DNA of 64,000 bases, from positions 1,088,001-1,152,000 of the forward strand of contig CBDFLJ010000002.1 of the NCBI GenBank assembly GCA_965248835.1. Reading direction: 5' to 3'. Numbering within the stretch: position 1 is the first letter of the stretch; each line of letters opens with the position of its first letter. Origin of the DNA: Alphaproteobacteria bacterium. Its GTDB lineage: Bacteria > Pseudomonadota > Alphaproteobacteria > MPNO01. The position numbers were made by a program, and so were the translations under genes. The notes beneath the pieces are model-generated. The model worked only from the letters and a program-made list of their open reading frames with translations. It had not been told where the DNA came from and ran no database searches. Shown here in pieces: positions 1,165-64,000 of the stretch.

Positions 1165-1828
1165 GGCATTGTCAGACTAAATGGCCTGGAGCTGCAGAAC
1201 CTTCAGTTGAGGCCCCTTAGGCTGCAAGTTGCCTCTACTCGGCCAGCGCAGCAGCCCGGTCTTGTGTGAAAATGTCGCGGCGGTTGAGATGGCGTTGGTG
1301 GTTGAAATGGTTGTGGATCGAGGCATCGACGGAGGCGAATTTCAGCAGAGTTTTTACGTCCCTGAATTTGGCCATTGCGCGTTCCCGTCGTCGGAAGGGT
1401 CGATGTGAGTTTTCTGCCCGGTTGTTGAGCCAACGCCTGTCCCCCCGGCTGCCCTCGTTGCCGATCACCTTCATCGCTGCCCGGTATGATTGTAGCCTGT
1501 CCGTGACGATCGTGGCCGGCCGGCCATAGCGCTTCATAGCCCGCTTCAGAAACCTGAGCGCGGCTTCGCGGTCCCGCCGTTTCGTGGCAAAAACCTCCAG
1601 GACTTCGCCTTCATGGTCAACGGCACGCCATAGATATGGCAAATGTCGATACCTCGTTCGAAAAGAATGTCTTCGACCTGCCGCAACGACAGCGGATAGC
1701 GGATATACGTCATCACCGCGAGGCGGATTACCTCGGGCGAGCTGTTGAAATAATGGAAGGGATTGTCCATCACTGGATGGTTACGAGAGCTTACTTCACG
1801 GCTCAAGGCGAGTTACTCTGACGGTGCC
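1165..1828 (-). mobile_element. IS6-family element, internally deleted (non-autonomous)
   Basis: Terminal IRs GGCATTGTCAGACTAA (1165-1180) and TTACTCTGACGGTGCC (1813-1828), 13/16 match; encloses IS6 transposase fragments. Confidence 0.85.
1235..1806 (-). pseudogene. IS6-family transposase, frameshifted with an internal deletion
   Basis: N-part 'FNSSPEVIRLAVMTYIRYPLSLRQVEDILFERGIDICH' joins out of frame to 'YLWRAVDHEGEVLE...TDRLQSY...NNRAENSHRPFRRRER'; the intervening WHLDE segment is missing. Confidence 0.85.
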
Positions 1829-4776: not shown

Positions 4777-6776
4777 CTCTTCACGGCCTGCTGACATCGA
4801 TAACGAAAACATCGATCCAGGAGCGCCGTGCCTCGGGCAAGCGATCAATCAACATCATTCGGAGCGCTTCGGGCGTCTCCGGCCGTTCGAGACCCTCCGG
4901 ATGTCCTGGCATCTTCTTCCCGGGAACATCTCCGAACCAAAGCACGACATACACGCCGCGGCCTTCCGCGTGCCAGTCGCGCGTATAGTTTGCGTCGAGT
5001 TGGTCGCTGGCGGCGTCCCACACATCACGATGCCACTGGCCCTTGATCTCAACCGGCAGTCCGAGCGCGTTACGGATGGCGGCAATGTCCGCCCGCGTCT
5101 GGCCGGGCATGTGCATCTCCGGCTCGAATCGGATCGACGGCGGCAACTGACCCGAAATGTGTTCGATGAGGCGGTTACGGCAGAAGTTCTCCCCCCTGGG
5201 CCCGTCCTCGGTCCAATAGGCTTCCCACATGTCGGTGTTGCTGGCTTGCATGCGCTCCTGGAGGGTTTCGATTCGGTCCGCGAAGTAGGCTCGCATGTCG
5301 TCGATGGTCTCGGGCAATCCCCGTGCCATGACGGATTGGAGTTGACCGACCGTGGGAGCAGCATACTCGGAATCCCGTCGGGCCCTGCGTTGAAGCGTAA
5401 GCGCATGCTTCGCCGTATCGGCGTAGGTCGGGACGTGACCCGCGATCAGGTTCTGCAACGCTTCGGTCGCGTCGGGTGACGGGCGAGTGGCGACGGCATA
5501 GATCGTGCGCCTGATGAAGTCGCTTGCGTCCCATGGGTTGCAATCGCCCGTCGTGACGCCCCCGGGACGCTTGATCCAGGGCCAATGCGCGCCGAAAGCC
5601 TCGACGACGAAAACAAGATGGACGAGGGAGAAATCGGCGAAGCGCTCACCGTTCTCCGTTCCGATCCGGTTTCGGATGAACCAGAGGAAGTCCGGATTAT
5701 CGGCGGCGGCCTTATCAAGTTCCTCCCGACGGTCATCGAAGTCGATGACGTAGTCCGCCGACAACCACAAAAGCTCGGTCGCGCGATCTGGGTGAGCGCG
5801 ATCCCGGACGTCGATGAGCAGTGCGCGTACCTCTCTACGCAGAGCGTTCTTGAGCGCAGAGTCCAGCAGTTCTGTCTGGACGTGGAGGTTCAATGCGGGG
5901 TAGCGGCGCAGCCAATCGACCGCGAGGCGGCCGGCCAACTGGGCAAATCGCGGGTCGGTAGCAAGCCGGTGCAGCTCGGTGATATGTCCCATATTGTGAG
6001 CAAGTTGAGGCTCAATGCTTGCGCGGAAATGGTCTTCCCAGTCCGCTTCGTTATTAAACAAGACCGTTTCGAGCGCGTAGCTGATGTCTATCTGTCCCGA
6101 AGCGTTCACCTCCAGCGCCCGGCGCCACGCCATATAGACCGCCGCGAGCTTGGGGCGATCGATCGCATCGATCGGGCGGCCTTGCCGAAGCATCTCGGCA
6201 ATGCCGCAGATCATGGGACCCTCGGCCTCCCAATGCTTATACTCGCAGTGGACTCGGGCGACGTCGGCGGCGCTCGGCAGGTCACTTCTGTCCAGAACCG
6301 CGATGAAGCCCATGAGTGCCTGATCGCCCAATATGTCGCCGAGGAACCCCCGTACTCGTGCCTCCGGCGATTCTGAGCCATCGAACCAACTGCACCGGCC
6401 GAGGTAGATGTCGGCCGGTGCAGCAAGATCTTGGACACTGCCGACGGCGATTTCATGCACCCTCTGGCGGTCGCGATGAGCTTGAAAAATTGCTTGGCGT
6501 TTTGTTTCTCTAAGGGCGCGGTGTCTCTCGTGCTCGATCTTCCATTCGGGCTCCACGACCTCCGTTTCTTCAGCGAGCACGGCCAGCAGCTCGGGATCAT
6601 CATCCGCAATCCGGATGGCCGCATCACGCACAATTTCCGAGATGCCGTCCGGAGACCGACCGAGCCGCAAGATGTGGCGCCATGTATCTGCATCTATCGA
6701 ACCATCACCCGCACGTGCACGCAGGGCTTTCAACACGCCTACGAGATCTTCAGGGGTCGGATACAGGTTGAGATTA

Positions 6777-7610
6777 GGGTCTGTACCTAATTGTAGAATG
6801 TGATTCTCTTGTTGGATTGAATTGTTATGGAGGGGATCGATGGGCGGTGGACTGTTCTGGTTGAGTGAAGGGCAATGGGCTCGGATCAAGCCGCATTTGC
6901 CGCAGGGTCTGACGGGGCCAAGGCGTTCGGACGATCGGCGGATCATCAGCGGCATTATCCATATGCTGCAATGCGGCGCGCGCTGGCGCGACTGTCCTGC
7001 CGCGTATGGTCCGTACACCACCATCTACAACCGCTTCAACCGCTGGTCCAAACACGGCCGCTGGCAGGCGATCTTCGCCGCGCTGGCCGCCAACGCCGAG
7101 GAACCGGTGGCGCTGGCGCTCGATTCCAGTTCGGTCAAGGCGCACCGCTCGGCGGCGGGCGGAAAAGGGGGGAGAAGAATCAGGCCATCGGACGCTCGCG
7201 CGGCGGGCGGACGACAAAAATCCACGCCCTGAGCGATCCGCGCTGCCGCCCGGTGGCGTTCGTCCTGAGCCCAGGCCAGAAGGCCGATATCGCGGCCGCG
7301 GTCGATGTGCTGGCCGTGGCGCCGCCCATGACCGCGCTGATCGCTGACAAGGCCTATGACGGCGATGCGCTGCGCGCCGACATCGCCAGCCGCAACGCAA
7401 CGCCCGTCATCCCTAACAAGGCCAGCCGCATCAATCTCCACCCCTTCGACGCCAAAACCTACCGCGACCGCAACGTCATCGAGCGCATGTTCTGCCGGCT
7501 CAAGGACTTCCGCCGCATCGCCACCCGCTACGACAAGCTCGCTCGAAACTTCCTCTCCGCAGTCTGTCTTGCCGCTATCCTCGCCTACTGGCTCAATTGA
7601 GTCTGGACCC
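6777..7610 (+). mobile_element. IS5-family (IS427-like) insertion sequence, apparently intact, 834 bp
   Basis: IRs GGGTCTGTACCTAATTG / CAATTGAGTCTGGACCC (12/17 match), flanked by TA at 6775-6776 and 7611-7612. Confidence 0.92.
6840..7600 (+). CDS. IS5-family transposase, two overlapping ORFs joined by a -1 frameshift
   Basis: orfA WRDCPAAYGPYTTIYNRFNRW...LDSSSVKAHRSAAG; slippery AAAAGGGGGG at 7163-7172; orfB GRSRGGRTTKIH...ADKAYD...RNVIERMFCRLKDFRRIATRYDK. Confidence 0.9.
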
Positions 7611-11025: not shown

Positions 11026-11880
11026 CTAGGCGGAACTCGGCGCCGATCCGTTGCGGCGCCAGATGACCGGGAACAGCTCGTCGTCCTCCGGATACGCCCC
11101 GTTTTCGAGATCGGGCCATTTGGGCAAGCCCATCACGCGCGGGCGGCGGTCCCAGGTCACGTCGTCGCCCAGATAGCGGATCGACAGCGCCATCCTGCGC
11201 GTCTCCAGGGATACGTTGCCTCCGGCGCCGTGCACCGTGAGCGGGTGGTGGCAGATGCAGTCGCCCGCCTCCACGTCCCAGGACAGGAACGCGAGCGAAG
11301 GGTCGTCGCGGCGCTCGCCAAAATCCGGGCATTCCTCGAGATCCGTGTCGGTGAACGCCGCGTCCTCGTCGGGCGTGACCGCGCAGTAGAACTTGTTCCA
11401 TCGGTGCGAGCCGGCGACGTATTCGAGCCCGCTGGTCTGCCTGGTCACCGGGGTCAGCGCGAGCCAGATCGAGGCCAGATGCTCGCCTCGGAACGGCCAG
11501 AACGGCAGATCGTGATGCCACTGCGTCGGCGCGCCGGTGCCGGGATCCTTGACGAAGAGCTGGTCGTACCAGAACCGCACCTGGTCGACACCCATCAGGG
11601 TCGCGGCGATCTCGGCTGCCGGGGAGTCGTTGCGGAAGGCGAGGAACTCCGGGTCATAAACGCTCATGAACCTATTGATCGTGAATTTCGCCTCCTCGCC
11701 GGGAAGCTGCGCCACGCGCCGTCGGTGCGCGCCGCGTTCGCTCTCGAGGTATCGGGTCATCGCCGCGCGCATGCGCGTGACCCAATCCTGATCGAACATT
11801 CCCCGCAGGCAGACGACCCCCTGGTCGTTATAGGCATCCATATCGGCCTGGATGATCTTCCGTCCCGGTCGTTTGTTCAT
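11026..11880 (-). CDS. Phytanoyl-CoA dioxygenase (PhyH)-family 2OG/Fe(II) oxygenase
   Basis: FVKDPG..TQWHHD (HxD), WLAL, GLEYVAGSH, TVHGAGGN...R. Confidence 0.88.
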   Translation of the reverse strand: MNKRPGRKIIQADMDAYNDQGVVCLRGMFDQDWVTRMRAAMTRYLESERGAHRRRVAQLPGEEAKFTINRFMSVYDPEFLAFRNDSPAAEIAATLMGVDQVRFWYDQLFVKDPGTGAPTQWHHDLPFWPFRGEHLASIWLALTPVTRQTSGLEYVAGSHRWNKFYCAVTPDEDAAFTDTDLEECPDFGERRDDPSLAFLSWDVEAGDCICHHPLTVHGAGGNVSLETRRMALSIRYLGDDVTWDRRPRVMGLPKWPDLENGAYPEDDELFPVIWRRNGSAPSSA

Positions 11881-23985: not shown

Positions 23986-24954
23986 ATGCAGACGATCCCG
24001 GTTATCGACATCGCCCCCTTTCTCGACGGCGATGGGGCCGGCAAGCACGCGGTCGCGGCCGAGATCGCCGCGGCGTGCGAACATTCCGGCTTTTTCTGTA
24101 TAACCGGACACGGGATCGATCCCGATCTGATCGCCCGCACCCGCCAGGCCGCGGTGGGTTTCTTCGCTCTGTCCGAAGACGAGAAGCGGCGGATCCTGCG
24201 GCCCGAGGATCGGGTCGGGCGCGGCTATTATCCCTTCGCCGACCGCTCGCTCGCCTACACGCTGGGGGTCGAGACCCCACCCGACCTTCAGGAAGCCTAC
24301 GCGATGGGGCCGCCGGACGTTCCCGACGAGCCCTATTATCAGGGGCCGGTCGCGGAATACTTCTTCGCCCGAAACCGCTACCCGGACCGCCCGGAGGCCT
24401 TCCGCGAGGCCGTGGAAACCTATTTTCGGAGCCTGTGCGCGCTGGCCGGCCGGCTGATGGGCGCGATGGCGCTCTCGCTCGGGCGGGGTGAGGACTTCTT
24501 TGCCGACAAGATCGACCGGCCGGCCTGCGTGCTGCGGCTGATCCGCTACCCCGGCCAGAGCGAGGCGCCGGCCGAGCGCCAGTTGCGCGCAGGCGCCCAC
24601 TCCGACTACGGCACGCTGACGGTGCTGCGCGGCGACGACGTGCCAGGGACGCTCCAGGTCAAGCTGCCGCGCCGCGGCTGGACCGACATCCGCCCGCCGC
24701 CCGACGGGTTCGTGTGCAATCTCGGCGACGCGATGGCGCGCTGGACCGGCGGGCGCTGGGCCTCGACGCTCCACCGGGTCGCCAACCCGCCGCGCGAGGC
24801 CGCCGGGCAGGATCGGATCTCGCTGGTCTTCTTCCATCAGCCGAACTACGACGCGATGCTGAACGGTCTGTGCGGCGATACGGGCGAAGCGGTCAGCCTC
24901 GCCGATCATTATATCGACAAGATCCACAAGGCGGCCGGCCGGCGGGCGTCCTGA
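23986..24954 (+). CDS. Isopenicillin N synthase-family 2OG/Fe(II) oxygenase
   Basis: IPVIDI, GFFCITGHG, AHSDYGTLT (HxD), STLHRV, RISLVFF. Confidence 0.9.
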   Translation: MQTIPVIDIAPFLDGDGAGKHAVAAEIAAACEHSGFFCITGHGIDPDLIARTRQAAVGFFALSEDEKRRILRPEDRVGRGYYPFADRSLAYTLGVETPPDLQEAYAMGPPDVPDEPYYQGPVAEYFFARNRYPDRPEAFREAVETYFRSLCALAGRLMGAMALSLGRGEDFFADKIDRPACVLRLIRYPGQSEAPAERQLRAGAHSDYGTLTVLRGDDVPGTLQVKLPRRGWTDIRPPPDGFVCNLGDAMARWTGGRWASTLHRVANPPREAAGQDRISLVFFHQPNYDAMLNGLCGDTGEAVSLADHYIDKIHKAAGRRAS

Positions 24955-33998: not shown

Positions 33999-35219
33999 AT
34001 GGAGCTTTATCACTTCACCGAATTTCCCTGGCCGCATTTGCCGCCCGACGACGCGTTCACCTCGATGCGGCTGAGCCTGCCGAGCCGGTACTACGATCCC
34101 AAGATCGGCGCGGACCTCTACAACATGTACCTCGACCAATACATGCTGGCCGACGAGCTCGGCATCAACTGCATGATCAACGAGCACCACCAGACCGCGA
34201 CCTGCCTGAACTCTTCCGGCCCGGTCGCACTTGCGATCCTGGCACGCCAGACCCGGAACGCACGGCTGTGCATCCTCGGCAACCCGGCGGCCAACCTGGC
34301 CGATCCGATCCGCTGCGCCGAGGAGATGGCGATGATCGACAACATCTCGCACGGCCGGCTCGAGTGCGGCTTCGTGCGCGGTGTGCCCTACGAGCTGTTC
34401 GCCTCCAACGCCAACCCGACCGAGACCAAGGAACGGCTTTGGGAATCGATCGATCTGATCATCCGCGCCTGGACCAGCCACGACGGGCCGTTCAACTACG
34501 AAGGGCGCTGGATCCACAAGCGCCAGGTCAATGTCTGGCCCAGGCCCTATCAGCAGCCCCATCCGCCGATCTGGACCACCGGCGGCAGCGATGTCGAGCA
34601 CGGCTTCAAGACGGTCTCACGCGGGTTCACGTTTGCGATGTTCCTGACCCCGGTCGATGTCCTGGCCAAGATGTTTCAGGGCGTGCGCGCGCGTTGCCGC
34701 GCCGAAGGCCATGTCGATCCCGCCGACGACCAGTTCGCCTTCATGCCGCTGGTTGCCGTCGGCGAGACCGAGGAGGAGGCGCGCAAGGTGATCGACGGCG
34801 TCTTCTGGTACGTCACCCACAACAAGTCCGAGCCGCAGTTCCGCGCCCCGCCGGGCTACGTCCAGCGCCGCCTCTACGCCAACTTCCTGACCGGCAAGTT
34901 CTCGGGCGGACGTACCGATGCGATCCGCAAACTGGGCATGGAGTATTTCCGCGACAACCACGTCGCGCTCTACGGTACGCCGGACCAGGTCGTCGACCAG
35001 ATCCGCGCGCTCTACGACAAGGTCGGCGGCTTCGGCCACCTGATCGCCATGTTGCACGCCGGCGACATGGACTATGCGACCACCGCTCGGTCGATGACCC
35101 TGTTCGCCGAGGAGGTCATGCCGCGGGTCCGCGATCTCGGCAGCAGGAGCACCGGTTTCGGCCCGCTCGCCAAGCGCGGCGAGGAGATCAACGGCAACGT
35201 GCGCTCTTGCGCGGCCTGA
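33999..35219 (+). CDS. LLM-class flavin-dependent monooxygenase
   Basis: INEHHQT, AEEMAMID, GRLECGFVRG, WPRPYQQPHPPIW, GTPDQV. Confidence 0.9.
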   Translation: MELYHFTEFPWPHLPPDDAFTSMRLSLPSRYYDPKIGADLYNMYLDQYMLADELGINCMINEHHQTATCLNSSGPVALAILARQTRNARLCILGNPAANLADPIRCAEEMAMIDNISHGRLECGFVRGVPYELFASNANPTETKERLWESIDLIIRAWTSHDGPFNYEGRWIHKRQVNVWPRPYQQPHPPIWTTGGSDVEHGFKTVSRGFTFAMFLTPVDVLAKMFQGVRARCRAEGHVDPADDQFAFMPLVAVGETEEEARKVIDGVFWYVTHNKSEPQFRAPPGYVQRRLYANFLTGKFSGGRTDAIRKLGMEYFRDNHVALYGTPDQVVDQIRALYDKVGGFGHLIAMLHAGDMDYATTARSMTLFAEEVMPRVRDLGSRSTGFGPLAKRGEEINGNVRSCAA

Positions 35220-35235
35220 GGTGCGGCCGGGCGCG

Positions 35236-36144
35236 ATGAAGCTCGGCGTCGTCTTTCCCCAGACCGAGATCGGCGCGGATCCCGGCGGCGTCGCCGCCTT
35301 CGCACAAGCCGCCGAAGATCTGGGCTACCACCACATCGCGGCCTTCGATCACGTGATCGGCGCCAATCCTGCGAGCCGGCCGGGCTATGCCGGGCTGTAC
35401 AACCACGAGTCGATGTTCCACGAGCCGATGGTGCTGTTCGCTTACCTCGCCGGACTGACCGAGACGATCGCGTTTGCCACCGGGATCCTGATATTGCCGC
35501 AGCGCCAAACCGTGCTGGTGGCCAAGCAGGCCGCTGCGCTCGACGTCTTGTCCGGCGGGCGGCTGCGGCTGGGGATCGGCATCGGCTGGAACCCGGTCGA
35601 ATACGAGGCGCTCGGCGAAAGCTTCGCCGACCGCGGCCGGCGCTGCGAGGAGCAGGTCGCGGTCCTGCGTGCGCTGTGGACCCGGAACCCGATCAGCTTC
35701 GAAGGGCGTTGGCACAGGATCGACGATGCGGGCCTCAACCCGCTGCCGGTCCAGCGTCCGATCCCGATCTGGTTCGGCGGCATGGCCGAGCCGGTGATCG
35801 CCCGCGTCGGGCGTATCGGCGACGGCTGGTACCCGCGCTTCCCGGGCCTCGGTCAGCGCGCCGATTCCTCAGTGATGCCTCACCACAGCGGCGCTCCGGC
35901 CGCGGTCATCGCGCGGATGCATGATCATGCCCGCGCCGCCGGCCGCGATCCCGCCGCCATCGGCATCGAGGGCCGCGTCTTCCACCGTGGCGCCGACCCG
36001 GACGATTGGCGGGCCGAATACGAGACCTGGCGTGCGCTCGGCGCAAGTCACATGCAGGTCTTCGCCATGGGCGCCGGCCTCGAGGGTCCCGACGCCCACA
36101 TTGCCGCGATCCGTGCGATGAAGGCAGCGCTGAACGGCGTCTAG
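35236..36144 (+). CDS. LLM-class oxidoreductase, F420-dependent-like subfamily
   Basis: FAQAAEDLGY...DHV, LPQRQTVLVAKQAAALDVLSGGRL, GIGWNPVEY, PIPIWFGG. Confidence 0.85.
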   Translation: MKLGVVFPQTEIGADPGGVAAFAQAAEDLGYHHIAAFDHVIGANPASRPGYAGLYNHESMFHEPMVLFAYLAGLTETIAFATGILILPQRQTVLVAKQAAALDVLSGGRLRLGIGIGWNPVEYEALGESFADRGRRCEEQVAVLRALWTRNPISFEGRWHRIDDAGLNPLPVQRPIPIWFGGMAEPVIARVGRIGDGWYPRFPGLGQRADSSVMPHHSGAPAAVIARMHDHARAAGRDPAAIGIEGRVFHRGADPDDWRAEYETWRALGASHMQVFAMGAGLEGPDAHIAAIRAMKAALNGV

Positions 36145-39529: not shown

Positions 39530-40621
39530 GTGATGCGGGTCCATGTCGAGGCCTACCCCACTGTTGGACCGCAAGACGTCGAGGGGCTGAAACGGATCCT
39601 GAGCCGCTTGCCGAAGGGCGGCATCAAGCGTCTGGCGCTGGTCGCCAAGACCGAAGGGACCGCAACCATCAACGATTTCTCCCGCGAGCTCGCGATGGGC
39701 GCGGCAATGGATACGATCGGGGCGTTCGGCGGTGAACGTCTGCTGGGGGACTCCACCCTGATCTTCTCCACCGGCTCGGAAGGTGCGCTGAGCCCGGTGG
39801 TCTATGTGCTTGCCGCGATCGAGGATGCCGGCACCGGCGAGGACGAGCGTCTGGTCATCGGCGGCGCGCGGACCCGGGCGATGGCGCCCGAAGAACTCGT
39901 CACCCGCGCCCATACAAACCTGATTGCCGATGCCGTTCGCGAGGCGATGGACGAGGCGGGGCTGGTGCCCGGGCAGGTCGGTCTGGTCTTCGTCAAGAGC
40001 CCGATTCTCGGCCACCGCGATGCGGTCGAGACCGGTGATCCGGCGGTCATCGCGCGGGCCGGCTCCAGCGGGCAGTCGCGCGGCGCTGCGGCGCTCGGGG
40101 TTGCGCTGGCCCTCGGCGAGTTGGACGACGCGGCGATTGCCGAGACCCGGATCGGCATCGATCTCGATCGTCATTCCAGCCGCGCGATGAGTTTCTCGGG
40201 CACCGAGGTCGCGGTCGGCGAAATCCTGGTGCTCGGCAACCGCCCCGGCGTGGGCGGTTCGTCAAAAATCTATTCGCGTCCGATGGCCGACATCCTGGAT
40301 TCGCGCGCGCTCAAGGCGCTGTTCCGCGACGCCGGCTGCGGCTTCGACGAGGCCGGCGAGATCACCGGCCGGGAGCGGCTCCGTGCGGTGTTCCTCAAGG
40401 CCGGGGTTGCCCCCGACGGACGCATTCGCGGCGAACGCACGACGGTCTTCAACAGCGAGCTCGACCCCGACAAGCACATGCGCGCCACCGCGAGCGGGGT
40501 GATCGGCGGCATCCTCGGCACCGGCCGCGTCTTCGTCAGCGGCGGCACCGAGCACCAGGCGCCGCCCGGCGGCGGGCTCTGCGCCTGTATCGCGGCCGCG
40601 GGGGAGGGCGCCGATGGATGA
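39530..40621 (+). CDS. Ring-opening amidohydrolase, cyanuric acid hydrolase/barbiturase (AtzD) family, divergent
   Basis: KTEG..NDFSR, FSTGSEG, FVKSP, SRGAAALG, C-terminal SGGTEHQAPPGGG. Confidence 0.85.
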   Translation: MMRVHVEAYPTVGPQDVEGLKRILSRLPKGGIKRLALVAKTEGTATINDFSRELAMGAAMDTIGAFGGERLLGDSTLIFSTGSEGALSPVVYVLAAIEDAGTGEDERLVIGGARTRAMAPEELVTRAHTNLIADAVREAMDEAGLVPGQVGLVFVKSPILGHRDAVETGDPAVIARAGSSGQSRGAAALGVALALGELDDAAIAETRIGIDLDRHSSRAMSFSGTEVAVGEILVLGNRPGVGGSSKIYSRPMADILDSRALKALFRDAGCGFDEAGEITGRERLRAVFLKAGVAPDGRIRGERTTVFNSELDPDKHMRATASGVIGGILGTGRVFVSGGTEHQAPPGGGLCACIAAAGEGADG

Positions 40622-41357
40622 GCTTCCCGCCATCGGCCCCTATGCCGGGCTCGGCAGGATCGGGCTGATCTGCCCCTCGACCAACACCAGCATCGAGCCC
40701 GAGTTCCAGCTTATGGCACCGCCGGGGCTTGCCATCCACGTCGCGCGCGCCTTCCAGGACGGACCTCAGGCGCCGGCACTCTACGAGCAGATCGCGGCCA
40801 ATGTCGAAGGGGCCAGCCGCGACCTCGGCTCGGCGGGGGTGGACGTGATCGCCTTCGGCTGCACCTCGTGCACCTATTTCTTTCCCGGCGCGGTGCTCGG
40901 CGAAACAATGACCCGGATGACCGGCGCGCCCGCGGTCCTGACCGCCGATGCTGTGGTCGCGGCGCTGCGCGTGCTCGGCGCCCGGCGGATCGCCTTGGCG
41001 ACACCGCGAACCGACTTCGTCAACCGGCAGGAGAGGGAATGGCTCGCCGAGCGCGGCTTCGAGGTCGTCTCCGCCGAAGGGCTGCAACTCGGCAAGACCG
41101 CCGCCGAACGAGCCGGCATCGGCCGGGTGCCGCTCAATGCGACCTACGATCTCGCGCGCCGGGTCGACCGGGAGGGCGTCGAGGCGGTGTTCATAAGCTG
41201 CACCAACCTGCCCTCGCTCGCGCTGATCCCGCTTCTGGAGGACGATCTCGGCAAGCCGGTTGTCACCAGCAACCAGGCGACCTTCTGGCAGTGTCTGCGA
41301 GCGATGGGATCGACGCTCAGGCTCCCAGCGCATGGAAAGCTGCTTTGCGAACACTGA
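40614..41357 (+). CDS. Asp/Glu racemase superfamily protein (maleate cis-trans isomerase / arylmalonate decarboxylase-like)
   Basis: IGLICPSTN, FGCTS and ISCTN catalytic cysteines, PVVTSNQA. Confidence 0.85.
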   Translation: MDELPAIGPYAGLGRIGLICPSTNTSIEPEFQLMAPPGLAIHVARAFQDGPQAPALYEQIAANVEGASRDLGSAGVDVIAFGCTSCTYFFPGAVLGETMTRMTGAPAVLTADAVVAALRVLGARRIALATPRTDFVNRQEREWLAERGFEVVSAEGLQLGKTAAERAGIGRVPLNATYDLARRVDREGVEAVFISCTNLPSLALIPLLEDDLGKPVVTSNQATFWQCLRAMGSTLRLPAHGKLLCEH

Positions 41358-57230: not shown

Positions 57231-57671
57231 TTACGTGCCGGCGATCGCCTCGCGCACCCGTGCGGAGTCCTCTTTCTTTTCGATCAGCGGCAGCTTGGCC
57301 TTGGCGTAGGTGTGCTTCTCCTTGAGCTTGCCGTTCTCGAAATGGAGGATGTCGAGGCCGCGCCAGCCGCCCGATCGCTCCTCGGTCTCGATCGTCAGGA
57401 GCCAGCGGATCAGTGCCTTTCCGGCGGCGACGTCGAGGAACATGTCCTCGGTGTGAAAGCGCAGCTTGCCGTAATCGCCGCGGAACTGCGGGACGAACGC
57501 CTGTTGGATCGCTTCCCTGCCGTGGTGGCGCACGCCGTGAAATTCGTCATAGATCGCATCCTCGGCGAAATACGACATCACCTCCTCGATGTTCTCGCGG
57601 TTGAAGGCCTCTGTGAAATCGACCACCAGCGCCGCGAGCGCCGCCCGGTCCGTGCTGTCGTTGGATGTCAT
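57231..57671 (-). CDS. NTF2/SnoaL-like protein
   Basis: FTEAFN...YFAEDAIY, HGREAI, GLDILHFENGKL.EK.TY. Confidence 0.85.
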   Translation of the reverse strand: MTSNDSTDRAALAALVVDFTEAFNRENIEEVMSYFAEDAIYDEFHGVRHHGREAIQQAFVPQFRGDYGKLRFHTEDMFLDVAAGKALIRWLLTIETEERSGGWRGLDILHFENGKLKEKHTYAKAKLPLIEKKEDSARVREAIAGT

Positions 57672-58447
57672 CGTCTTTGCTCCAGTTCTGACGGGGCCGA
57701 ACCGTCCCCGGTCACCGCCGGTTCATCGCCGCGCGGCCATCGCCGGCCGAGCACGACCAGCGCATCGACCGCCACCGGATCCGCGCCGGTGACGATCATC
57801 GGGTTGACGTCGATCTGCTCGATCTCGGGGTGATCGAGGCCGATCCTGCCCAGCGCGACGATCGACCTGGTGAGCGCGGCCAGATCGACCGCCGGCATGC
57901 CGCGGATGGCCTCGAGCAGCTTGTGCCCCCTGATGCTCCGGACCATTTCCAGCGCATCGCGCTTGCGCACGGGCGCGATGCGGAACACAACGTCTTCGAG
58001 AACCTCGGTGAAGATGCCGCCAAGGCCGAACATGACCGATGGTCCGAACTGCTCGTCGCGGATCATCCCGATCGCGACCTCGCGCTCGCCTCTGATCATC
58101 TGCTGGACCAGGAAGCCGCCGGTAAACGCCGGCCCGGCGCGTTGGTTGATGGTGCGGAAGGCATCGCCCAGCGCCCTGTCCGAGCTGAGATTGACCGCGA
58201 CCAGACCCTTTTCCGTCTTATGGGTCGCTTCCGCTGCACATGCCTTCAGCACGACCGGATAGCCGAGTGTCTTTGCTGCGTCCCTGGCCTGTGCAAGCCG
58301 GCTCACCAGCACCTCACGGGTCACCGGGATGGCGTAGGCGGCAAGAATCCGCTTGCTGTCGTACTCCGAAAGCGTGCGCTCGCCGCGGGATTTCGCCGCA
58401 TCGATGACTGCGGCCGCTTGTCTTGCGGCGTCGCTTCGCCCCGCCAT
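57668..58447 (-). CDS. ADP-forming acyl-CoA ligase ATP-grasp (beta) subunit
   Basis: LSEYDSKRIL, GYPVVLK, HKTEKG, FGPSVMFGLGG, DVNPM, AVDA. Confidence 0.85.
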   Translation of the reverse strand: MAGRSDAARQAAAVIDAAKSRGERTLSEYDSKRILAAYAIPVTREVLVSRLAQARDAAKTLGYPVVLKACAAEATHKTEKGLVAVNLSSDRALGDAFRTINQRAGPAFTGGFLVQQMIRGEREVAIGMIRDEQFGPSVMFGLGGIFTEVLEDVVFRIAPVRKRDALEMVRSIRGHKLLEAIRGMPAVDLAALTRSIVALGRIGLDHPEIEQIDVNPMIVTGADPVAVDALVVLGRRWPRGDEPAVTGDGSAPSELEQRR

Positions 58448-58469: not shown

Positions 58470-59468
58470 TCAGCCGGCCTTGCCCGTGGTCAGCACGATC
58501 TTGCCGATCGATTTGCGCTGGCCGAACAGCGTGATCGCCTTCTGGAAGTCTTCCAGCGGATAGGTGGCGGTGATCGCCGGACGGATCTCGCCCTTGACGC
58601 ACATCTCCAGGACCTCGGCGACGACCTTCTCCATGGTCTCGGGCACGTAGCGGAAGTGCAGGTCGAGCGATACGCCGGCCATGGTCAGGTTCTTGACGTT
58701 GAAATAGCCGACCTTGGCCTCGGGGATGCGGCCGGCCGCGAAGCCGATGGCGACGATCCGCCCGGCGAAGGCAAGCGTGCGGATGGCGGCATCGAACACG
58801 TCGCCGCCGACCGGATCGAGCACGATGTCCACGCCCCTGCCGTCGGTCACGGCGAAGATCTGCTCACGCAGGGACTCGCGCAGGTCGCCGACCGACAGGT
58901 CGATCGTATGATCGGCACCGTTGGCCTTCGCCAGCGCGTTTTTCTCCTCGGAAATATCCGCCGCGAGCACGACCGCGCCCTTGGCCTTGGCGATCTGGAC
59001 GGCCGCCAGCCCGACACCGCCGGAGGCGCCCAGCACCAGCACGGTCTCGCCCGGCTGATACTGACCGCGGATCATCAAGGACACATAGGCGGTGTTGTAG
59101 ATGGTCGTCATTCCCGCCCCGGTGATGAAATCGATGCCCTCGGGCAGCGGGAAACACCGCGATTCCGGAGCAACGACCTGTTCGGCATAGGCGCCGGTCG
59201 GGACGAGGACCGCGACCCTGTCGCCGACCTTGACCTTGGTGATCTTCTCGCCAATCGCGGTGACGATCCCGGCGGCGTCGCGGCCGGGAACGAAGGGGCG
59301 CTGGGGCTTGGTCTGATAAAGACCCTGCATCATCAAGGTGTCGGGGAAGTTGACGCCGATTGCGTGGACCTCGACCAGCACTTCCTGCGGTCCGGGTCTG
59401 GGGTCGGGCACCTCCTCGAGCTTGTGGCTTTCCAGCGGCCCGAATTCGTGGATGAGGACACCGCGCAC
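58470..59468 (-). CDS. NADPH:quinone oxidoreductase-family (MDR) protein
   Basis: GVNFPD, PFVPG, VLGASGGVG, LDPVGG, GFAAG, GKIVL; GTG start after GGAGG. Confidence 0.9.
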   Translation of the reverse strand: MRGVLIHEFGPLESHKLEEVPDPRPGPQEVLVEVHAIGVNFPDTLMMQGLYQTKPQRPFVPGRDAAGIVTAIGEKITKVKVGDRVAVLVPTGAYAEQVVAPESRCFPLPEGIDFITGAGMTTIYNTAYVSLMIRGQYQPGETVLVLGASGGVGLAAVQIAKAKGAVVLAADISEEKNALAKANGADHTIDLSVGDLRESLREQIFAVTDGRGVDIVLDPVGGDVFDAAIRTLAFAGRIVAIGFAAGRIPEAKVGYFNVKNLTMAGVSLDLHFRYVPETMEKVVAEVLEMCVKGEIRPAITATYPLEDFQKAITLFGQRKSIGKIVLTTGKAG

Positions 59469-59799
59469 TGTTCTTGCCTCCGATCTTTCCGGGCCACCAT
59501 CGGCCGCATCGTTTTCGGTGGGCGACATCCCCGGCGGAGTGATCCACCGCGCGCGCGCACCGTTTGGTTCAAAGAGGCGGACTCTGGCTCAACGAGGCGG
59601 ATCGATCACGCCCCCAGCCCTGCCGCACAACGAAATTTCCGGCAAAATATCATCGCCATACGCGGCATGAAAGCCTCAAACAAGCGCCGCCCGAACAGGT
59701 TCGGGGACCCGCTTGACCCCGGTCGGCATCCTATCGACTATCGCGTCAATGAACGCCGGGCCGGGTTCCGGCCGAAGCGACAAGGATGGGGTAAAGGCA

Positions 59800-61395
59800 A
59801 TGGCGCAAAAGCCGGGTGGGACCAGGCCCGGGGCGAAGCACGACCTCGCCATCCCCTTCCAGTCGGTGCGCTCGCTGCTCGACCGTTACAAGGCGAGGGA
59901 CCCCGACAAGACCGCACTCTACGACCTCGACCAGGGCAGCTCGATCACCTTCGGCCAGCTCCACACCGAGGCCAACCGCATCGCGAACTTCCTGGCCCAG
60001 CGCGGGATCGGCAAGGGCGACAACGTCGCGGTGCTGTCCGACGAACGGCTGGAGAAGCTCATCCTGTGGATGGGGGTCTGGCGCGCCGGTGCGGTGGTCT
60101 GCCCGCTCAACGTCGAGATGAACATCGCCTATATCGCCGAGATCCTGCAAAATCTCGCGCCCAAGCTGACGCTCTGGCACGAGGCCATGGACGGCCCGCG
60201 GATGACCCGGGGCGTCGGCGGCGAGATCATGGCGTTCTCGACCTGGCGCCCGAGCACCCAGGGCGCGGCGGATGCCGAGGAGTTCTTCACCCGCGTTGCC
60301 GCCTGTCCCGCCTCGCCGGAACAAGGCCTCGATAACGCGCCCGAGGATATCGGCAGCATCTATTGCACTTCGGGCACCACCGACAAGCCCAAGCTGTTCG
60401 TGTGCGACCAGCTCGGACATTGGTTGTTCGGCCTGTCGACGATCGATTTCCTCGGGCTTACCGAAGACGACCGGACCCTGGAGTACCGCTCGTTCGGCTG
60501 GAACTCCGCCCAGGGGCTGAGCCTTCTGCCATGGATGCAGACCGGCTGCACGCTCTACTTCGCCAGGCGGTTCTCCGCCAGCCGGTTCTTCGACTGGATC
60601 AAGACCCACGGCATCACCTTCTCTGTCGGCATCCCGACGGTGATCAACATGCTGCTCAACGAGCCTGCCGGGGTGACGGCAAAGGACCTGCCGACGCTTC
60701 GGCTGATGAGCTCGAGCACCGCGCCGCTGGCGCCCGAGCGCTGGCAGCAGTTCGAGGATACCTACGGCATCCCGGTCATCCAGTTCTACGGCTCCTCGGA
60801 GGGCGGCTGGGGGTGCGGCAACCGGCATTACTACAAGAAAAAGGGCACCGTCGGCCCGCCAGCCAAGCACCAGGAATTTCTCATCGTCGATGCGGACGGC
60901 AACCCATGCCCGCCGGGTGTCGAGGGCGAGGTTACCCTGGGCGGTCCGCAATGCGTCGTCGCCTCGATCTCCGCCGACGGCGCGTGGGAGGATCTCCGGG
61001 GCCACCGCATCCACCTGGGCGATCTCGCGGTGATGGACGACGACGGATTCGTGACCGTCACCGGCCGGCTCAAGGACCTGATCATCCGTGGCGGTGTCAA
61101 CATATCGCCGAACGAGATAGACAACGTGATCCTGCGCCACCCCAAGGTGCTGGAGGCCGCCGCCGTCGGCGTGCCCGATCCCATCTATGGCGAAGAGGTG
61201 GTGTGCTACGTCGTCGCGCGGGCCGGCGAGTCTCCGACCGAAGATGAGATCAAGGGCCATTGCGTTCGGGTCATGCCGGAATACCGGGTGCCGAAAACGG
61301 TCCATTTCATCGACGCTCTGCCGAAGAACGACCGCGGCAAGGTCCGCCGCGACGATCTCAAGGCGATCTGGCAGCGCGACCATCCCGACGCCTGA
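59800..61395 (+). CDS. AMP-forming acyl-CoA synthetase (class I adenylate-forming enzyme)
   Basis: YCTSGTTDKPK, FYGSSEG, LGDLA, RLKDLIIRGG, LPKNDRGK. Confidence 0.9.
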   Translation: MAQKPGGTRPGAKHDLAIPFQSVRSLLDRYKARDPDKTALYDLDQGSSITFGQLHTEANRIANFLAQRGIGKGDNVAVLSDERLEKLILWMGVWRAGAVVCPLNVEMNIAYIAEILQNLAPKLTLWHEAMDGPRMTRGVGGEIMAFSTWRPSTQGAADAEEFFTRVAACPASPEQGLDNAPEDIGSIYCTSGTTDKPKLFVCDQLGHWLFGLSTIDFLGLTEDDRTLEYRSFGWNSAQGLSLLPWMQTGCTLYFARRFSASRFFDWIKTHGITFSVGIPTVINMLLNEPAGVTAKDLPTLRLMSSSTAPLAPERWQQFEDTYGIPVIQFYGSSEGGWGCGNRHYYKKKGTVGPPAKHQEFLIVDADGNPCPPGVEGEVTLGGPQCVVASISADGAWEDLRGHRIHLGDLAVMDDDGFVTVTGRLKDLIIRGGVNISPNEIDNVILRHPKVLEAAAVGVPDPIYGEEVVCYVVARAGESPTEDEIKGHCVRVMPEYRVPKTVHFIDALPKNDRGKVRRDDLKAIWQRDHPDA

Positions 61396-61697
61396 TTCCT
61401 CCAGTGCGGCATAGCGTTTCACGCTGGTTGTAATCGAAACAAAATCTCGCTCGACGCCGCGCTATATTTTGCCTTTATGGACGCGGACGGGTAGTGTCCG
61501 CTCCGCGATCCGCTGTGCGCGGATCGCTGCGCCGCCCGGTCCGGCGCGCCGGCCGCGATGCCGGGAAACAGACCGGAAAGCGCGTTGCGGTGGGTTTTGT
61601 CGACCGATCGCTCGTTTCCGCCGCCGACTAACGCGGCATCGAACCGCCCCGGCCGCCGATTAACGCGGGCCCATGGGGACGCTTGAAGGAGAGACTG

Positions 61698-63275
61698 ATG
61701 AGCACGGCTGCAAAGGAAGCCCTCGGTGCGCCGCCCGAGGCGATCTTCGATCTGCGCAACACGCTGGAGTGGCTGAAGAGCGAAGGCGACCTGATCGAGA
61801 CCGACAAGGAGGTCGATCCGGACCTCGAGCTAACCGCGATCCAGAAGCAGATGGACGGCGGCTGCCCGATCCTGTTCAACAACGTCAAGGGCAAGCCCAA
61901 CCATCGCCTGATCACCAACCTGTTCGGCGACATCTCGGTGATCAACAAGATGTTCGGCTGGGCGGACGATACCGACCGCACCCGCAAGCTCGCCCATGCT
62001 CTGTCACATCCGCTGGCCCCTGTGGAGGTCTCCCAGGACGAGGCCCCGGCCCAGCAGCATGTCATCGAGAACCCGGCGGACGTCAATGACTACATGGTCC
62101 CGATCCGCCATACCACCTACGAGCCCGAACTGACGGTGGGCTCCGGCAACCGGGTCGTCACCGGCGAATATTTCGACGGCGGCTCCGACCTCGGATACAA
62201 CCGGATGAACTTCCGCTGGGGCAATGTCGGCACCTTCCAGATCTCGCCCGGCTCCCACATGTGGCAGGTCGTTTCCAAACACTACAAAGACGACAAGCCG
62301 GTGCCGATCACCATGTGCTTCGGCGTGCCGCCGTCCTGCACACTGCTTTCCGGTGCGGGCTTCGACTACGTGATCCTGCCCCAAGGCTGCGACGAGATCG
62401 GCATCGCCGGCGCCGTCCAGGGCCAGCCGGTCCGTCTGGTCAAGGCGCGCACGGTCGATGCGATGGCGCTTGCCGATTGCGAGGTCGTGCTGGAGGGCTA
62501 CGTCAACCCGCGCGACCGCCGCTACGAGACCGCCGAGTCCGAGGAAGCCGGCGTCCAGGGACGGTTCCATTTCCACCCCGAATGGGCCGGTTACATGGGC
62601 AAGGCCTATAAGGCGCCCACCTTCCACGTCACCGCGGTGACCATGCGCGATCCGGCGACCAAGCCGATCATCTTTGCACTCGGCGTGCACACGCTGGACG
62701 ACCACAACATCGACACGACGGTACGCGAAGCGGCGATGTTCGAGCTGTGCGAGCGCATGCAGCCCGGCATCATCCAGGACTGCGTCATCCCCTACTGCAT
62801 GACCGACTGGGGCGGCGGGATCATCCAGGTCAAGAAGCGCAACCGGCTGGACGAAGGCTGGCAGCGCAACTTCATGGCCGCGATCCTGGCGACCTCGCAA
62901 GGCGCGCGCCTGTGCGTGGCGGTCTCCGAGGACACCGACCCCTATGACATGGACGACGTGATGTGGTGCCTGACCACGCGGGTCAACCCGAAGACCGATA
63001 TCCTGAACCCGCTGCCGGGCGGCCGCGGCCAGACCTTCATGCCGGCCGAGCGGATGACCGCCGGGGATAAGGAATGGACGGCGTCGAACACCACGTTCGA
63101 GGGCGGAATGGGCATCGACGCCACGGTACCGTTCGGCTACGAGAGCGACTTCATGCGTCCGGTCTATCCGATCGAGAAGGTCACGCTGTCGGACTTCTTC
63201 TCCGAAGACCAGATCAGCAACGCCCGTTCGCGCATGAAGGGCTGGGTCCACAGCCTCGCGCGCACCGGCAGGTAA
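61698..63275 (+). CDS. UbiD-family prFMN decarboxylase, phthaloyl-CoA decarboxylase-like
   Basis: UbiD architecture; GYNRMNFRWGNVGTFQISPGSHMWQV, FHFHPEWAGYMGKAYKAPTF and C-terminal WV.SLARTGR match phthaloyl-CoA decarboxylases as I recall them. Confidence 0.85.
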   Translation: MSTAAKEALGAPPEAIFDLRNTLEWLKSEGDLIETDKEVDPDLELTAIQKQMDGGCPILFNNVKGKPNHRLITNLFGDISVINKMFGWADDTDRTRKLAHALSHPLAPVEVSQDEAPAQQHVIENPADVNDYMVPIRHTTYEPELTVGSGNRVVTGEYFDGGSDLGYNRMNFRWGNVGTFQISPGSHMWQVVSKHYKDDKPVPITMCFGVPPSCTLLSGAGFDYVILPQGCDEIGIAGAVQGQPVRLVKARTVDAMALADCEVVLEGYVNPRDRRYETAESEEAGVQGRFHFHPEWAGYMGKAYKAPTFHVTAVTMRDPATKPIIFALGVHTLDDHNIDTTVREAAMFELCERMQPGIIQDCVIPYCMTDWGGGIIQVKKRNRLDEGWQRNFMAAILATSQGARLCVAVSEDTDPYDMDDVMWCLTTRVNPKTDILNPLPGGRGQTFMPAERMTAGDKEWTASNTTFEGGMGIDATVPFGYESDFMRPVYPIEKVTLSDFFSEDQISNARSRMKGWVHSLARTGR

Positions 63276-63311
63276 TCCGGCGGAAATTCCGGACAAACAC
63301 CGGACCTGCGA

Positions 63312-63341
63312 GTCGGGGCGGCCCTGCCGGGCCGCCCCGAC
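63312..63341. terminator. Strong hairpin between convergent genes
   Basis: GTCGGGGCGGCCC-tgcc-GGGCCGCCCCGAC, perfect 13-bp stem. Confidence 0.6.
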
Positions 63342-63346
63342 CCGCT

Positions 63347-63370
63347 TCATTCCCGCGAAAGCGGGGATGC
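63347..63370. repeat. REP-like palindrome
   Basis: TCATTCCCGC-GAAA-GCGGGGATGC resembles the widespread TCATTCCCGCGAAAGCGGGAATC extragenic palindrome. Confidence 0.5.
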
Positions 63371-63421
63371 TTGCACCGTGGGACAATCCGCCGCTTCGAT
63401 CGATCGGTCGGCGGCAAGCGC

Positions 63422-64000
63422 TCAGCTCGGCGCGCGCAGCCGGAAGCGCTGGATTTTGCCGGTCGCCGTCTTGGGCAGCTCGTCGAGGAAGTTGAACCAG
63501 CGCGGGTATTTGTAGCGGGCGAGCCTGTCTCGGCAGTGCTCGCGCAGATCATCGGCCAACGCATCCCCGGCGTCGGCGGCGTCATTGAGGACCACGAACG
63601 CCTCGGGCTTGATCAGCCCGTCGTCGTCGGCGCGGCCGACGACCGCGGCTTCCAGCACCTTGGCATGCTCGATCAGGGTGGCCTCGATCTCGAAGGGCGA
63701 ACACCACAGCGCGCCGACCTTCATCATGTCGTCGCCGCGGCCGCAGTTGACGAAATAGCCGTCCTCGTCCTGATAGTACATGTCGCCGGTGTTGAGCCAT
63801 TCGCCCAGCATGGTGCTGGCGGTCTTCTCCGGATTGTTCCAATAGCACTTGGCTGCGGATTCTCCCTTGACGTGGACGACGCCGATCTCGCCGGTCGGGA
63901 CGGTGTCGCCGTTTTCATCGACGATCTTGACCTCGTATCCCGGGACCACGCGGCCCGAGGTGCCGCGCTTGTGGTCGGCCTCCGTGTTGGTGATGAAGAT
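63422..64000 (-). CDS. Benzoate-CoA ligase-family protein, C-terminal part (cut by window edge)
   Basis: IFITN...GTSGRVVPGYE, YWNNPEKT, TGD, GRGDDMMKVG..WCSPFEIE, LPKTATGKIQRF.LR. Confidence 0.82.
   Translation of the reverse strand: MFITNTEADHKRGTSGRVVPGYEVKIVDENGDTVPTGEIGVVHVKGESAAKCYWNNPEKTASTMLGEWLNTGDMYYQDEDGYFVNCGRGDDMMKVGALWCSPFEIEATLIEHAKVLEAAVVGRADDDGLIKPEAFVVLNDAADAGDALADDLREHCRDRLARYKYPRWFNFLDELPKTATGKIQRFRLRAPS

Follow-up and report, generated by a model that had tools for sequence, protein, structure and literature searches.

A predicted ligase-type phthaloyl-CoA decarboxylase locus with a structured 5' leader in an aerobic alphaproteobacterial lineage

The stretch of DNA analyzed here, hereafter the window, comprises 64,000 nucleotides of an alphaproteobacterial genome of 4.89 Mb in two contigs (assembly GCA_965248835.1; contig CBDFLJ010000002.1, abbreviated C2; C2:1088001-1152000). 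Near its end lies a UbiD-family decarboxylase gene, preceded on the same strand by a gene for an AMP-forming coenzyme A (CoA) ligase and met from the opposite strand by a gene of the benzoate-CoA ligase (BCL) family. These genes are called pcd (for phthaloyl-CoA decarboxylase, Pcd), LIG1 and LIG2 below. A preliminary description of the window, drawn from its letters alone, had reported the same three-gene layout, and all three genes were located as it claimed (Table 1). It had also read the genes as a ligase-type route for phthalate, or perhaps a related aryl or heteroaryl dicarboxylate, in a probably aerobic alphaproteobacterium, a proposal that is supported, as far as sequence goes, by the clade of the decarboxylase, its linkage to a ligase and the apparently aerobic character of the host. 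A structured RNA leader lies between LIG1 and pcd. The reading was extended past the end of the window with C2:1146001-1166000 (L007). The probable start of LIG1 is Met-30 of the open reading frame (ORF), homologs being about 531 residues long, and alignments place the probable start of Pcd at an ATG within its own frame.

Table 1. Features at the pcd locus (positions in the window)
Feature	Position	Strand	Basis and remarks
SnoaL_2-domain protein	57231..57668	-	last gene of divergent operon; PF12680, 52.2 bits
Stand-alone ATP-grasp_5 protein resembling the beta part of ADP-forming acyl-CoA synthetases	57668..58447	-	PF13549, 220 bits
MDR-family NAD(P)H quinone-oxidoreductase-like gene	58470..59528	-	divergent from LIG1; ADH_N and ADH_zinc_N; TIGR02824 254.8 bits, below cut-off 296.8
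LIG1, AMP-forming acyl/aryl-CoA ligase	59800..61395 (ORF from 59713)	+	AMP-binding 216.7 bits, AMP-binding_C 77.6 bits
pcd leader, structured RNA, 77 nt	61618..61694	+	covariance model, covariation
Pcd, UbiD-family decarboxylase	61698..63275 (ORF from 61683)	+	UbiD_N, UbiD, UbiD_C
LIG2, benzoate-CoA-ligase family	63422..64000 (whole gene to ~65002, beyond the window)	-	converges on pcd; TIGR02262 599.6 bits

Two samples underlie the comparisons that follow. A scan for relatives covered one genome per prokaryotic species (185,579 species), and the counts of neighboring genes rest on the best 80 of 411 stretches. The other sample comprises 78 genomes of the order of the window genome, 43 of them of high quality, in five families (f1 to f5), of which f1 is the family of the window and f3 a sister family.

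The UbiD protein and its relatives

Pcd carries the three domains of the UbiD fold, with scores of 65.8 (PF20695), 106.9 (PF01977) and 68.9 bits (PF20696), all above the respective cut-offs. When Pcd is searched against all PDB chains, the top matches are 8pmk, 8oz5 and 8p02, the Pcd of Thauera chlorobenzoica, at 884.5 bits (E 2e-265, query residues 22-530). Other families follow at a distance, with 149 bits for 3,4-dihydroxybenzoate (protocatechuate) decarboxylase, 113-115 bits for HmfF (6h6v, 6h6x) and at most 85 bits for Fdc1. Pcd is 72% identical (367/508) to the UbiD adjoining UbiX on plasmid 2 of Aromatoleum aromaticum EbN1, while its nearest paralog in its own genome reaches 39% identity. 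NCBIfam has no model for the Pcd clade; the best match there, VdcC, reaches 166 bits where its cut-off is 650. In a 76-row tree (quick search, LG+G4 model), the 74 Pcd rows, including EbN1, are split from two outgroup UbiDs by a branch of 0.89 with SH-aLRT support of 99, and the window protein falls inside. It belongs to a monophyletic group of 11 loci, every one with a ligase upstream. This LIG1-type group keeps 218 of the 221 columns that are invariant in the 63 other clade members; the window Pcd itself departs from the invariant set at one column, A223S (220/221 kept). The preliminary description had matched long motifs to the phthaloyl-CoA decarboxylase clade and had called for a phylogeny, and both the score to 8pmk and 8oz5 and the place in the tree bear it out. 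It named a UbiD outside this clade as a refutation, and the tree puts the protein inside. Homologs at 74-85% identity are treated as Pcd in passages of a metagenome study (PMC8269228). We conclude from these comparisons that the window UbiD is a Pcd ortholog, and that phthaloyl-CoA decarboxylation is its likely activity.

The best 80 relatives are 78-95% identical to the window protein over the best aligned segment, and their titles name metagenome-assembled genomes labeled Alphaproteobacteria, Defluviicoccus, Rhodospirillaceae, Binatia, Deltaproteobacteria, Xanthobacteraceae and others. Within the order, Pcd occurs in 68 of the 78 genomes and in 42 of the 43 high-quality ones, across all five families, and many f3 genomes have two copies (73-76% and 69-72% identical to that of the window). 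From the window's own genus outward to the other families, identity to the window Pcd is 95% in g1, 90-91% in g6, 81-86% in f4, 78-79% in f2 and 73-76% in f3, compared with RpoB identities of 93%, 85-88%, 75-82%, 79-80% and 76-82%, respectively; the order of the families is thus not identical for the two proteins. Since Pcd identity falls broadly with kinship as that of RpoB does, yet the Pcd tree mixes rows from Binatia and Deltaproteobacteria among the alphaproteobacterial ones, the pattern suggests long residence of Pcd in the order with some transfer.

The order is also rich in other UbiD proteins. The window genome has 38 PF01977 matches, and 26-41 are found in each of 50 genomes that are at least 90% complete (f1, f3, f4 and f5), even at genome sizes of 2.5-3.1 Mb; three f2 genomes have 9-14. 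In the window genome, 9 of 34 UbiD genes, pcd included, have an AMP-forming ligase within 4 kb, and one has a CoA-transferase (tblastn). Against these 38 matches stands a single UbiX-family match, at C2:1889332-1889877 (TIGR00421, 236 bits against a cut-off of 108.9), approximately 738 kb from pcd. The preliminary remark that the window lacks ubiX is therefore confirmed, and the genome search it recommended has located the gene elsewhere.

Ligases and hydroxylase around pcd

LIG1 scores below every NCBIfam cut-off, so that no curated ligase model is matched. Its best solved relatives are oxalate-CoA ligase (5ie0, 196 bits) and malonyl-CoA synthetase (4fuq, 167 bits), both activators of dicarboxylates. 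In 11 of the best 80 loci, pcd is immediately preceded, on its own strand, by an ortholog of LIG1 (at least 73% identical). Of the 20 f1 genomes (the window genome included), 15 have the gene in the orientation of pcd and approximately 300 bp ahead of it, and a sixteenth has it 1.4 kb away; in at least 15 of 25 f3 genomes an ortholog of 63-70% identity occupies the same strand 5-17 kb from pcd. Such recurrence in 11 of the best 80 loci and in 15 of 20 f1 genomes means that the arrangement is not due to chance. Other solutions are also common. Ten of the best 80 loci have, within 6 kb of pcd, a ligase of a sister subfamily approximately 40% identical to LIG1; family III CoA-transferase genes, mostly two, occur within that distance in 23; and 36, several of them on short contigs, have no activating enzyme within it. 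UbiX is found within 6 kb in five. Because transferase-linked and partnerless Pcd loci are also common, the pairing with a ligase is real but one of several solutions. Among 401 sampled genomes of Thermodesulfobacteriota, the phylum of locus L062, four have Pcd matches, and the three loci examined (relatives of 47-49% identity) are all linked to CoA-transferases, one of them also to ubiX. As for the window, the surroundings of pcd are free of CoA_transf_3 genes out to 6 kb, and the best matches in the genome to the Pcd-linked transferases of locus L061, at 24-39% identity, are elsewhere. The type of activation named in the preliminary description thus agrees with what adjoins pcd, namely an AMP-forming ligase and not a pair of family III CoA-transferases. 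On the strength of gene order, LIG1 is the most likely candidate for the phthalate activator.

A ligase tree of 52 rows, rooted on two BCL-family proteins, resolves two sister subfamilies. Subfamily B contains LIG1, its database homologs and two paralogs from the window genome, whereas subfamily A contains the Pcd-linked ligases of other lineages along with two further ligases of the window genome. One of the latter, at C2:154731-156332 (L100:11731-13332), is divergent from and next to boxC; the Pcd-linked ligase of locus L087 is 52% identical to this box-adjacent ligase and 40% identical to LIG1. The two LIG1 paralogs of the window genome (61% and 52%) sit in unrelated contexts. Within C2:2529000-2533630 (L103:7015-11629), about 1 kb downstream of the 52% paralog, is a gene for a 680-residue AFOR_N/AFOR_C protein, the sole member of the AOR family in the genome. 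Elsewhere in the genome, on the minus strand at C2:1661018-1664162, a Pcd-like UbiD of 543 residues (39%) ends in a stop that overlaps by 5 nt the start of a 505-residue subfamily-A AMP-forming ligase (L101:7531-9162 and 6018-7535). This second pair, which may serve CoA-dependent decarboxylation of another aromatic diacid, is adjoined by genes for a LigXa-like Rieske oxygenase and an isochorismatase-family protein.

LIG2, read as a whole protein, belongs to the benzoate-CoA ligase family (TIGR02262, cut-off 375.25). Among solved structures it comes closest to anthranilate-CoA ligase (4wv3, 457 bits), with benzoate-CoA ligase (2v7b, 454 bits) next, and its identity to the BCL of the box cluster described below is 63%. 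A LIG2 ortholog converges on pcd in both f1 and f3. In f3 genomes the second Pcd copy has a second BCL-like gene with it. Beyond the window, at L007:7269-11592 (65269-69592 in window terms), LIG2 is divergently paired with an operon for a three-subunit molybdenum (Mo) hydroxylase. The large subunit, 1003 residues long, has a C-terminal CoxG/SRPBCC domain, and the operon is followed by genes for a SnoaL_4 protein and a GMC oxidoreductase. The hydroxylase is always divergent from LIG2 and is 69-70% conserved in f3. The recurrence of this arrangement identifies LIG2 and the Mo-hydroxylase as a conserved module, so that the converging gene is not incidental; its steady partnership with the hydroxylase suggests a role of its own for LIG2. 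As to what the Mo enzyme does, all curated models are missed at their cut-offs. Among solved structures, the large subunit comes closest to a CoxL-like protein (8uem, 424 bits), followed by quinoline 2-oxidoreductase (359 bits) and 6-hydroxypseudooxynicotine dehydrogenase (326 bits). Assignment as 4-hydroxybenzoyl-CoA reductase is not supported, at 358 bits against a cut-off of 995, with 239 bits to 1rm6, below the N-heterocycle hydroxylases. Carbon monoxide dehydrogenase likewise lacks support, as the AYR active-site motif of that enzyme is missing from the protein.

The combination of parts had raised suspicion of an HmfF-type furandicarboxylate decarboxylase. In the HmfF/HmfG system for 2,5-furandicarboxylate, HmfABC is a furoyl-CoA dehydrogenase, HmfD a ligase and HmfH a GMC oxidase, and HmfF acts on the free acid; the window and its flank offer the same types of part, the UbiD being accompanied by an aryl-CoA ligase, a Mo hydroxylase of three subunits and a GMC oxidoreductase. 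The candidate was rejected because the window UbiD scores 113-115 bits to HmfF and 884 to Pcd.

Upstream of LIG1, the divergent genes of Table 1 are conserved to varying degrees. The MDR gene is found there in all 11 LIG1-type loci (62-86% identity), with an ortholog of 56-57% in the f3 cluster. The ATP-grasp_5 gene is kept at 76-77% in loci L019 and L020 and at 58-62% in the f3 cluster, where it lies beside the Mo-hydroxylase. A SnoaL_2 gene also adjoins the LIG1 ortholog in f3.

The RNA element upstream of pcd

In the alignment of pcd loci, conservation over the approximately 110 nt before the pcd ATG exceeds that of the remaining spacer between the gene and LIG1. The core is a pair of hairpins, each of the form GCCGC[CGAnnAAC]GCGGC, with a spacing of 30-35 nt in the 30 sequences examined and of 32 nt in the window. 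The 16-mer CCGCCGA-NN-AACGCGG has two occurrences in the whole 4.9-Mb genome, both in the leader. The leader precedes pcd in 30 of the best 80 loci, with or without LIG1 upstream. A 7-bp outer helix encloses its second hairpin, with 4-6 nt between the end of the helix and the Shine-Dalgarno sequence. The sequence of this helix is specific to the lineage while complementarity is kept, as seen in the versions CGCCCC/GGGG-CG, CGCUCC/GGAG-CG, CCGCUUC/GAAGCGG, CACUUU/AAAGUG and CGUCC/GGACG.

A covariance model, R1, built from eight sequences, has 31 matches in 1.57 Mb of loci, each directly 5' of a Pcd gene. In the alignment fitted to this model, a fit that itself biases toward structure, 95.6% of the cells pair, as against 28-55% with the partners slid; compensatory changes are found in 9 of 17 pairs, including seven of seven in the outer helix; and covariation scores 0.344, a value that none of 500 shuffles (0.148) attains. 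RNAalifold applied to the raw MAFFT alignment recovers only the two small hairpins, the outer helix becoming countable after alignment to the covariance model. A search of the order with R1 returns 43 matches in 42 of the 78 genomes, all on the coding strand, one per Pcd copy and two where two copies bear the leader. Forty abut a listed Pcd; the other three are on contigs that have no listed Pcd match, one of them at a contig end. By family, the leader is found in 17/19 (f1), 22/26 (f4), 2/2 (f5), 0/5 (f2) and 0/25 (f3).

The 5' strand of the outer helix is rich in pyrimidines (CCCC, CUCC, CUUC) and its partner resembles a Shine-Dalgarno sequence, with the real one 4-6 nt farther on. A translational switch between anti-Shine-Dalgarno and pseudo-Shine-Dalgarno pairing is a reasonable guess at the mode of action. 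Rfam 15, searched over 59400-63600 at E <= 1, returns only IRES_mnt at 61462-61560, outside the leader, with 25.4 bits against a gathering threshold of 100. A promoter and terminator scan of the same interval gives 0 promoter-like and three terminator-like sites, no more than in shuffles. Among the papers found to name both riboswitches and UbiD, none deals, by title or abstract, with a natural element, and in passages of a 2026 review (PMC13040137) riboswitches appear only as a desired phthalate biosensor. The pcd leader is apparently a new, Pcd-specific RNA.

Just 5' of the leader, at approximately 61560-61617, lies a GC-rich hairpin with a short T-rich run. By eye, families differ in its sequence yet preserve its pairing. 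It may terminate transcription of the upstream gene or form a third helix of the leader.

A possible route and its competitors

The genome of the window encodes, approximately 1 Mb from pcd on the same contig, boxC, boxB and a benzoate-CoA ligase in a row (TIGR03222, 926 bits against a cut-off of 712; TIGR03225, 849 against 499; BCL, 600 bits). It also has two COX1 genes for subunit I of haem-copper oxidases. No member of the HGD-D family, to which BcrB and BcrC belong, is found in the genome, and neither NarG nor NapA has a match above cut-off there. These results agree with the preliminary view of a probably aerobic host, and they answer its call for a search for box and bcr genes, as BoxB and BoxC are found and BcrB/C-family members are not. 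In G046, a genome of f3, the second Pcd copy (71%) lies approximately 6.6 kb from a BoxB that is 70% identical to that of the window genome. This box cluster of about 14 kb (C1:1911001-1930900 of G046) also holds a BoxC-like gene of the crotonase family (576 residues), a BCL-like ligase, two tandem subfamily-A ligases (one shares 56% identity with the box-adjacent ligase of the window genome) and a VanA-like Rieske oxygenase. Among the comparisons it offers the strongest support for a flow from Pcd into the box pathway. The first Pcd copy of f3 is flanked by two alpha/beta hydrolases, possibly phthalate-ester hydrolases.

Because BoxB, BoxC, two haem-copper oxidases and UbiX are present, and because a BcrB/C-type reductase, NarG and NapA are absent, the best reading is an aerobic hybrid route that takes phthalate by way of phthaloyl-CoA and benzoyl-CoA into the epoxide pathway. 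We regard it as fairly probable that the cluster funnels phthalate, or a very similar ortho-dicarboxylated aromatic acid, to benzoyl-CoA by oxygen-independent steps inside an aerobe. An ATP-dependent, AMP-forming ligase, most likely LIG1, would make the labile thioester phthaloyl-CoA. Pcd would then remove the free ortho carboxyl group to give benzoyl-CoA and CO2, with prenylated flavin mononucleotide supplied by the one UbiX of the genome, and the BoxB epoxidase and BoxC dihydrolase would dearomatize benzoyl-CoA aerobically. LIG2 would bring a free monocarboxylate into the same pool of CoA esters, and the synthesis of Pcd would be under separate control by its own structured 5' leader. Family and clade membership, retained residues, gene order and the covariation of the leader are observed, whereas the substrates, the ligase that acts on phthalate, the passage into the box pathway and the ligand and mode of action of the leader are predictions.

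Several observations weigh against this reading. Characterized Pcd is oxygen-sensitive. A search of the genome recovers no canonical BoxA, the best match to TIGR03224 reaching 36.9 bits against a cut-off of 459.2. LIG1 fits no curated model, as noted, the ligase tree joins the Pcd-linked ligases of other lineages to the box-adjacent ligase and not to LIG1, and nearly half of the best 80 loci (the 36 mentioned above) have no activating enzyme nearby. The spacer of approximately 300 bp between LIG1 and pcd, containing a hairpin and the leader, does not assure co-transcription. Nine sequencing runs from three studies cover 59500-63500 wholly or in part, and no RNA run is listed among them. That both f1 and f3 keep LIG2 and the Mo-hydroxylase next to pcd, the latter with a quinoline and a pseudooxynicotine enzyme among its nearest solved relatives, hints at a heteroaromatic substrate. 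Finally, folded as a single sequence, the leader is no more stable than shuffles (z -0.39).

The last two points bear on alternatives that deserve to be weighed together with a third. A different natural substrate, such as the CoA ester of pyridine-2,3-dicarboxylate or of a substituted phthalate, whose product, also made by LIG2, would be hydroxylated by the Mo enzyme in place of the box pathway, seems to us unlikely. It would account for the persistence of LIG2 and the three Mo subunits beside pcd (the large subunit is found in 8 of 11 LIG1-type loci, and in f3 the module is kept at 63% and 69-70%), for the greater proximity of that subunit to CoxL-like, quinoline and pseudooxynicotine enzymes than to 4-hydroxybenzoyl-CoA reductase, and for a near-core distribution of Pcd that is hard to square with a purely industrial substrate. 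Yet the retention of 218 of 221 clade-invariant columns gives no sign of a remodeled active site, the second Pcd copy of f3 accompanies BoxB and BoxC and not the hydroxylase, Pcd occurs in f4 and in other phyla with neither LIG2 nor the Mo genes, and the Mo enzyme is under every curated cut-off. A somewhat less remote, though still doubtful, alternative is that LIG1 acts on an unrelated acid and that phthalate is activated by LIG2 or by the box-adjacent ligase. The kinship of that ligase with the Pcd-linked ligases of other lineages would fit (52% against 40% for locus L087), as would the occurrence of LIG2 orthologs within approximately 14 kb of both Pcd copies in f3 genomes, the anthranilate-CoA ligase match of LIG2, benzoate- and anthranilate-CoA ligases being tolerant of ortho substituents, and the unrelated contexts of the LIG1 paralogs. 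On the other side, LIG1 is the only same-strand ligase directly upstream of pcd, in 15 of 20 f1 genomes, with the linkage kept in f3; ligase-bearing Pcd loci outside the order carry a LIG1 or LIG1-like (~40%) ligase and no BCL-type one; and LIG2 is divergently paired with the Mo-hydroxylase operon.

As for the leader, it could be a DNA operator composed of two 16-bp sites, three helical turns apart, for a transcription factor. The two copies 30-35 bp apart in 30 sequences, each with a short inverted repeat (CCGC/GCGG), the nearly invariant hairpin stems (helix 1) and the ordinary folding energy are what such an operator would show. A DNA site does not predict an outer helix that wholly changes its sequence between lineages and still pairs, with seven of seven pairs compensatory, and the element lies on the coding strand in 43 of 43 matches, abutting the Shine-Dalgarno sequence. 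We consider the operator the least probable of the three alternatives and retain the reading of the leader as an RNA that would govern Pcd synthesis.

Compared with known systems, the cluster is, on the evidence of its sequence, a variant of the phthaloyl-CoA route that is ligase-type, chromosomal, lineage-wide and housed in an aerobe. The Pcd proteins of T. chlorobenzoica and EbN1 share with that of the window the three-domain UbiD fold, the clade and the invariant residues. In the denitrifiers, however, pcd adjoins ubiX, in EbN1 on a conjugative plasmid and flanked by insertion sequences, whereas in the window it is chromosomal, approximately 738 kb from ubiX, near-universal in the order and free of nearby traces of mobile elements. 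The sole such trace seen in the window is a 134-residue DDE_Tnp_IS240 transposase fragment at 1235-1639 (minus strand). Unlike the Pcd systems of denitrifiers, the window pcd has AMP-forming ligases as neighbors and a leader RNA in front of it, in a host that has no BcrB/C-type reductase. An aerobic hybrid phthalate pathway via phthaloyl-CoA, combining Pcd, box genes and a CoA-transferase in denitrifying Betaproteobacteria, was reportedly described by Ebenau-Jehle et al. in 2020. That route reportedly relies on a CoA-transferase in facultative denitrifiers, in contrast to the ligase of the window and to its alphaproteobacterial order, with neither NarG nor NapA found in the window genome.

Passages of the 2026 review (PMC13040137) place CoA-transferases in denitrifiers and an ATP-dependent ligase in Desulfosarcina cetonica, with ubiX in all known clusters, unlike that of the window, and the preliminary description, which had placed transferases in denitrifiers and ligases in strict anaerobes, agrees with them. 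D. cetonica follows the same logic as proposed here, from an ATP-dependent ligase through Pcd to benzoyl-CoA (passages of PMC13040137 and PMC9516798), but it is a strict anaerobe with reductive dearomatization, unlike the aerobic host of the window. Syntrophorhabdus aromaticivorans, according to passages of PMC9516798, pairs an ATP-dependent isophthalate-CoA ligase, PaaK-like and of approximately 50 kDa, with a UbiD-family isophthaloyl-CoA decarboxylase. The pairing of ligase and UbiD on a phthalate isomer is alike; LIG1, having AMP-binding_C (PF13193) and about 531 residues, is not PaaK-like, a type marked by AMP-binding_C_2 and a mass near 50 kDa. The passages of the review document the CoA-dependent, oxygen-independent phthalate route only in a few denitrifying, sulfate-reducing and fermenting anaerobes (PMC13040137), and the papers found to name phthaloyl-CoA decarboxylase contain, by title or abstract, no aerobic alphaproteobacterial cluster and no ligase-type cluster with box genes.

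Phthalates are mass-produced pollutants, and a near-core Pcd in aerobes, linked to ATP-dependent ligases and, in f3, to box genes, would widen the range of possible phthalate degraders under oxic conditions. The phthaloyl-CoA route is said, in the title of a paper, to be a recently evolved xenobiotic pathway. The distribution of Pcd raises the question of which natural ortho-dicarboxylated aromatics lie behind it. One tentative answer, which we put forward as a speculation, is that phthaloyl-CoA decarboxylation did not arise lately in response to industrial plasticizers but is an old and largely vertical trait of an aerobic alphaproteobacterial order that maintains 26-41 UbiD paralogs for natural aromatic acids, with Pcd gated by a riboswitch-like leader that would respond to phthalate, the CoA ester of phthalate or some related metabolite. 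In that case the leader would be the first natural RNA sensor for the phthalate class of compounds. It could serve as a biosensor part, phthalate-responsive riboswitches being called for in passages of PMC13040137. The pair of ligase and decarboxylase is, for its part, a candidate biocatalyst module that would have no need of succinyl-CoA.

Elsewhere in the window, the preliminary description of an oxygenase-rich region fits the presence of three luciferase-like monooxygenases (2815-4023, 33999-35216 and 35221-36141, plus strand), a PhyH dioxygenase and a 2OG-Fe(II) oxygenase (11026-11877, minus strand, and 23986-24951, plus strand). Three TRAP transporter gene sets and several alpha/beta hydrolases are also found. 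At 39530-41354 on the plus strand, upstream of a fused TRAP transporter gene, a ring-opening amidohydrolase of the AtzD/TrzD type (241 bits) is followed by a gene of the arylmalonate-decarboxylase/Asp-Glu-racemase family, and the two look like a ring-cleavage module of the cyanuric-acid or barbiturate type.

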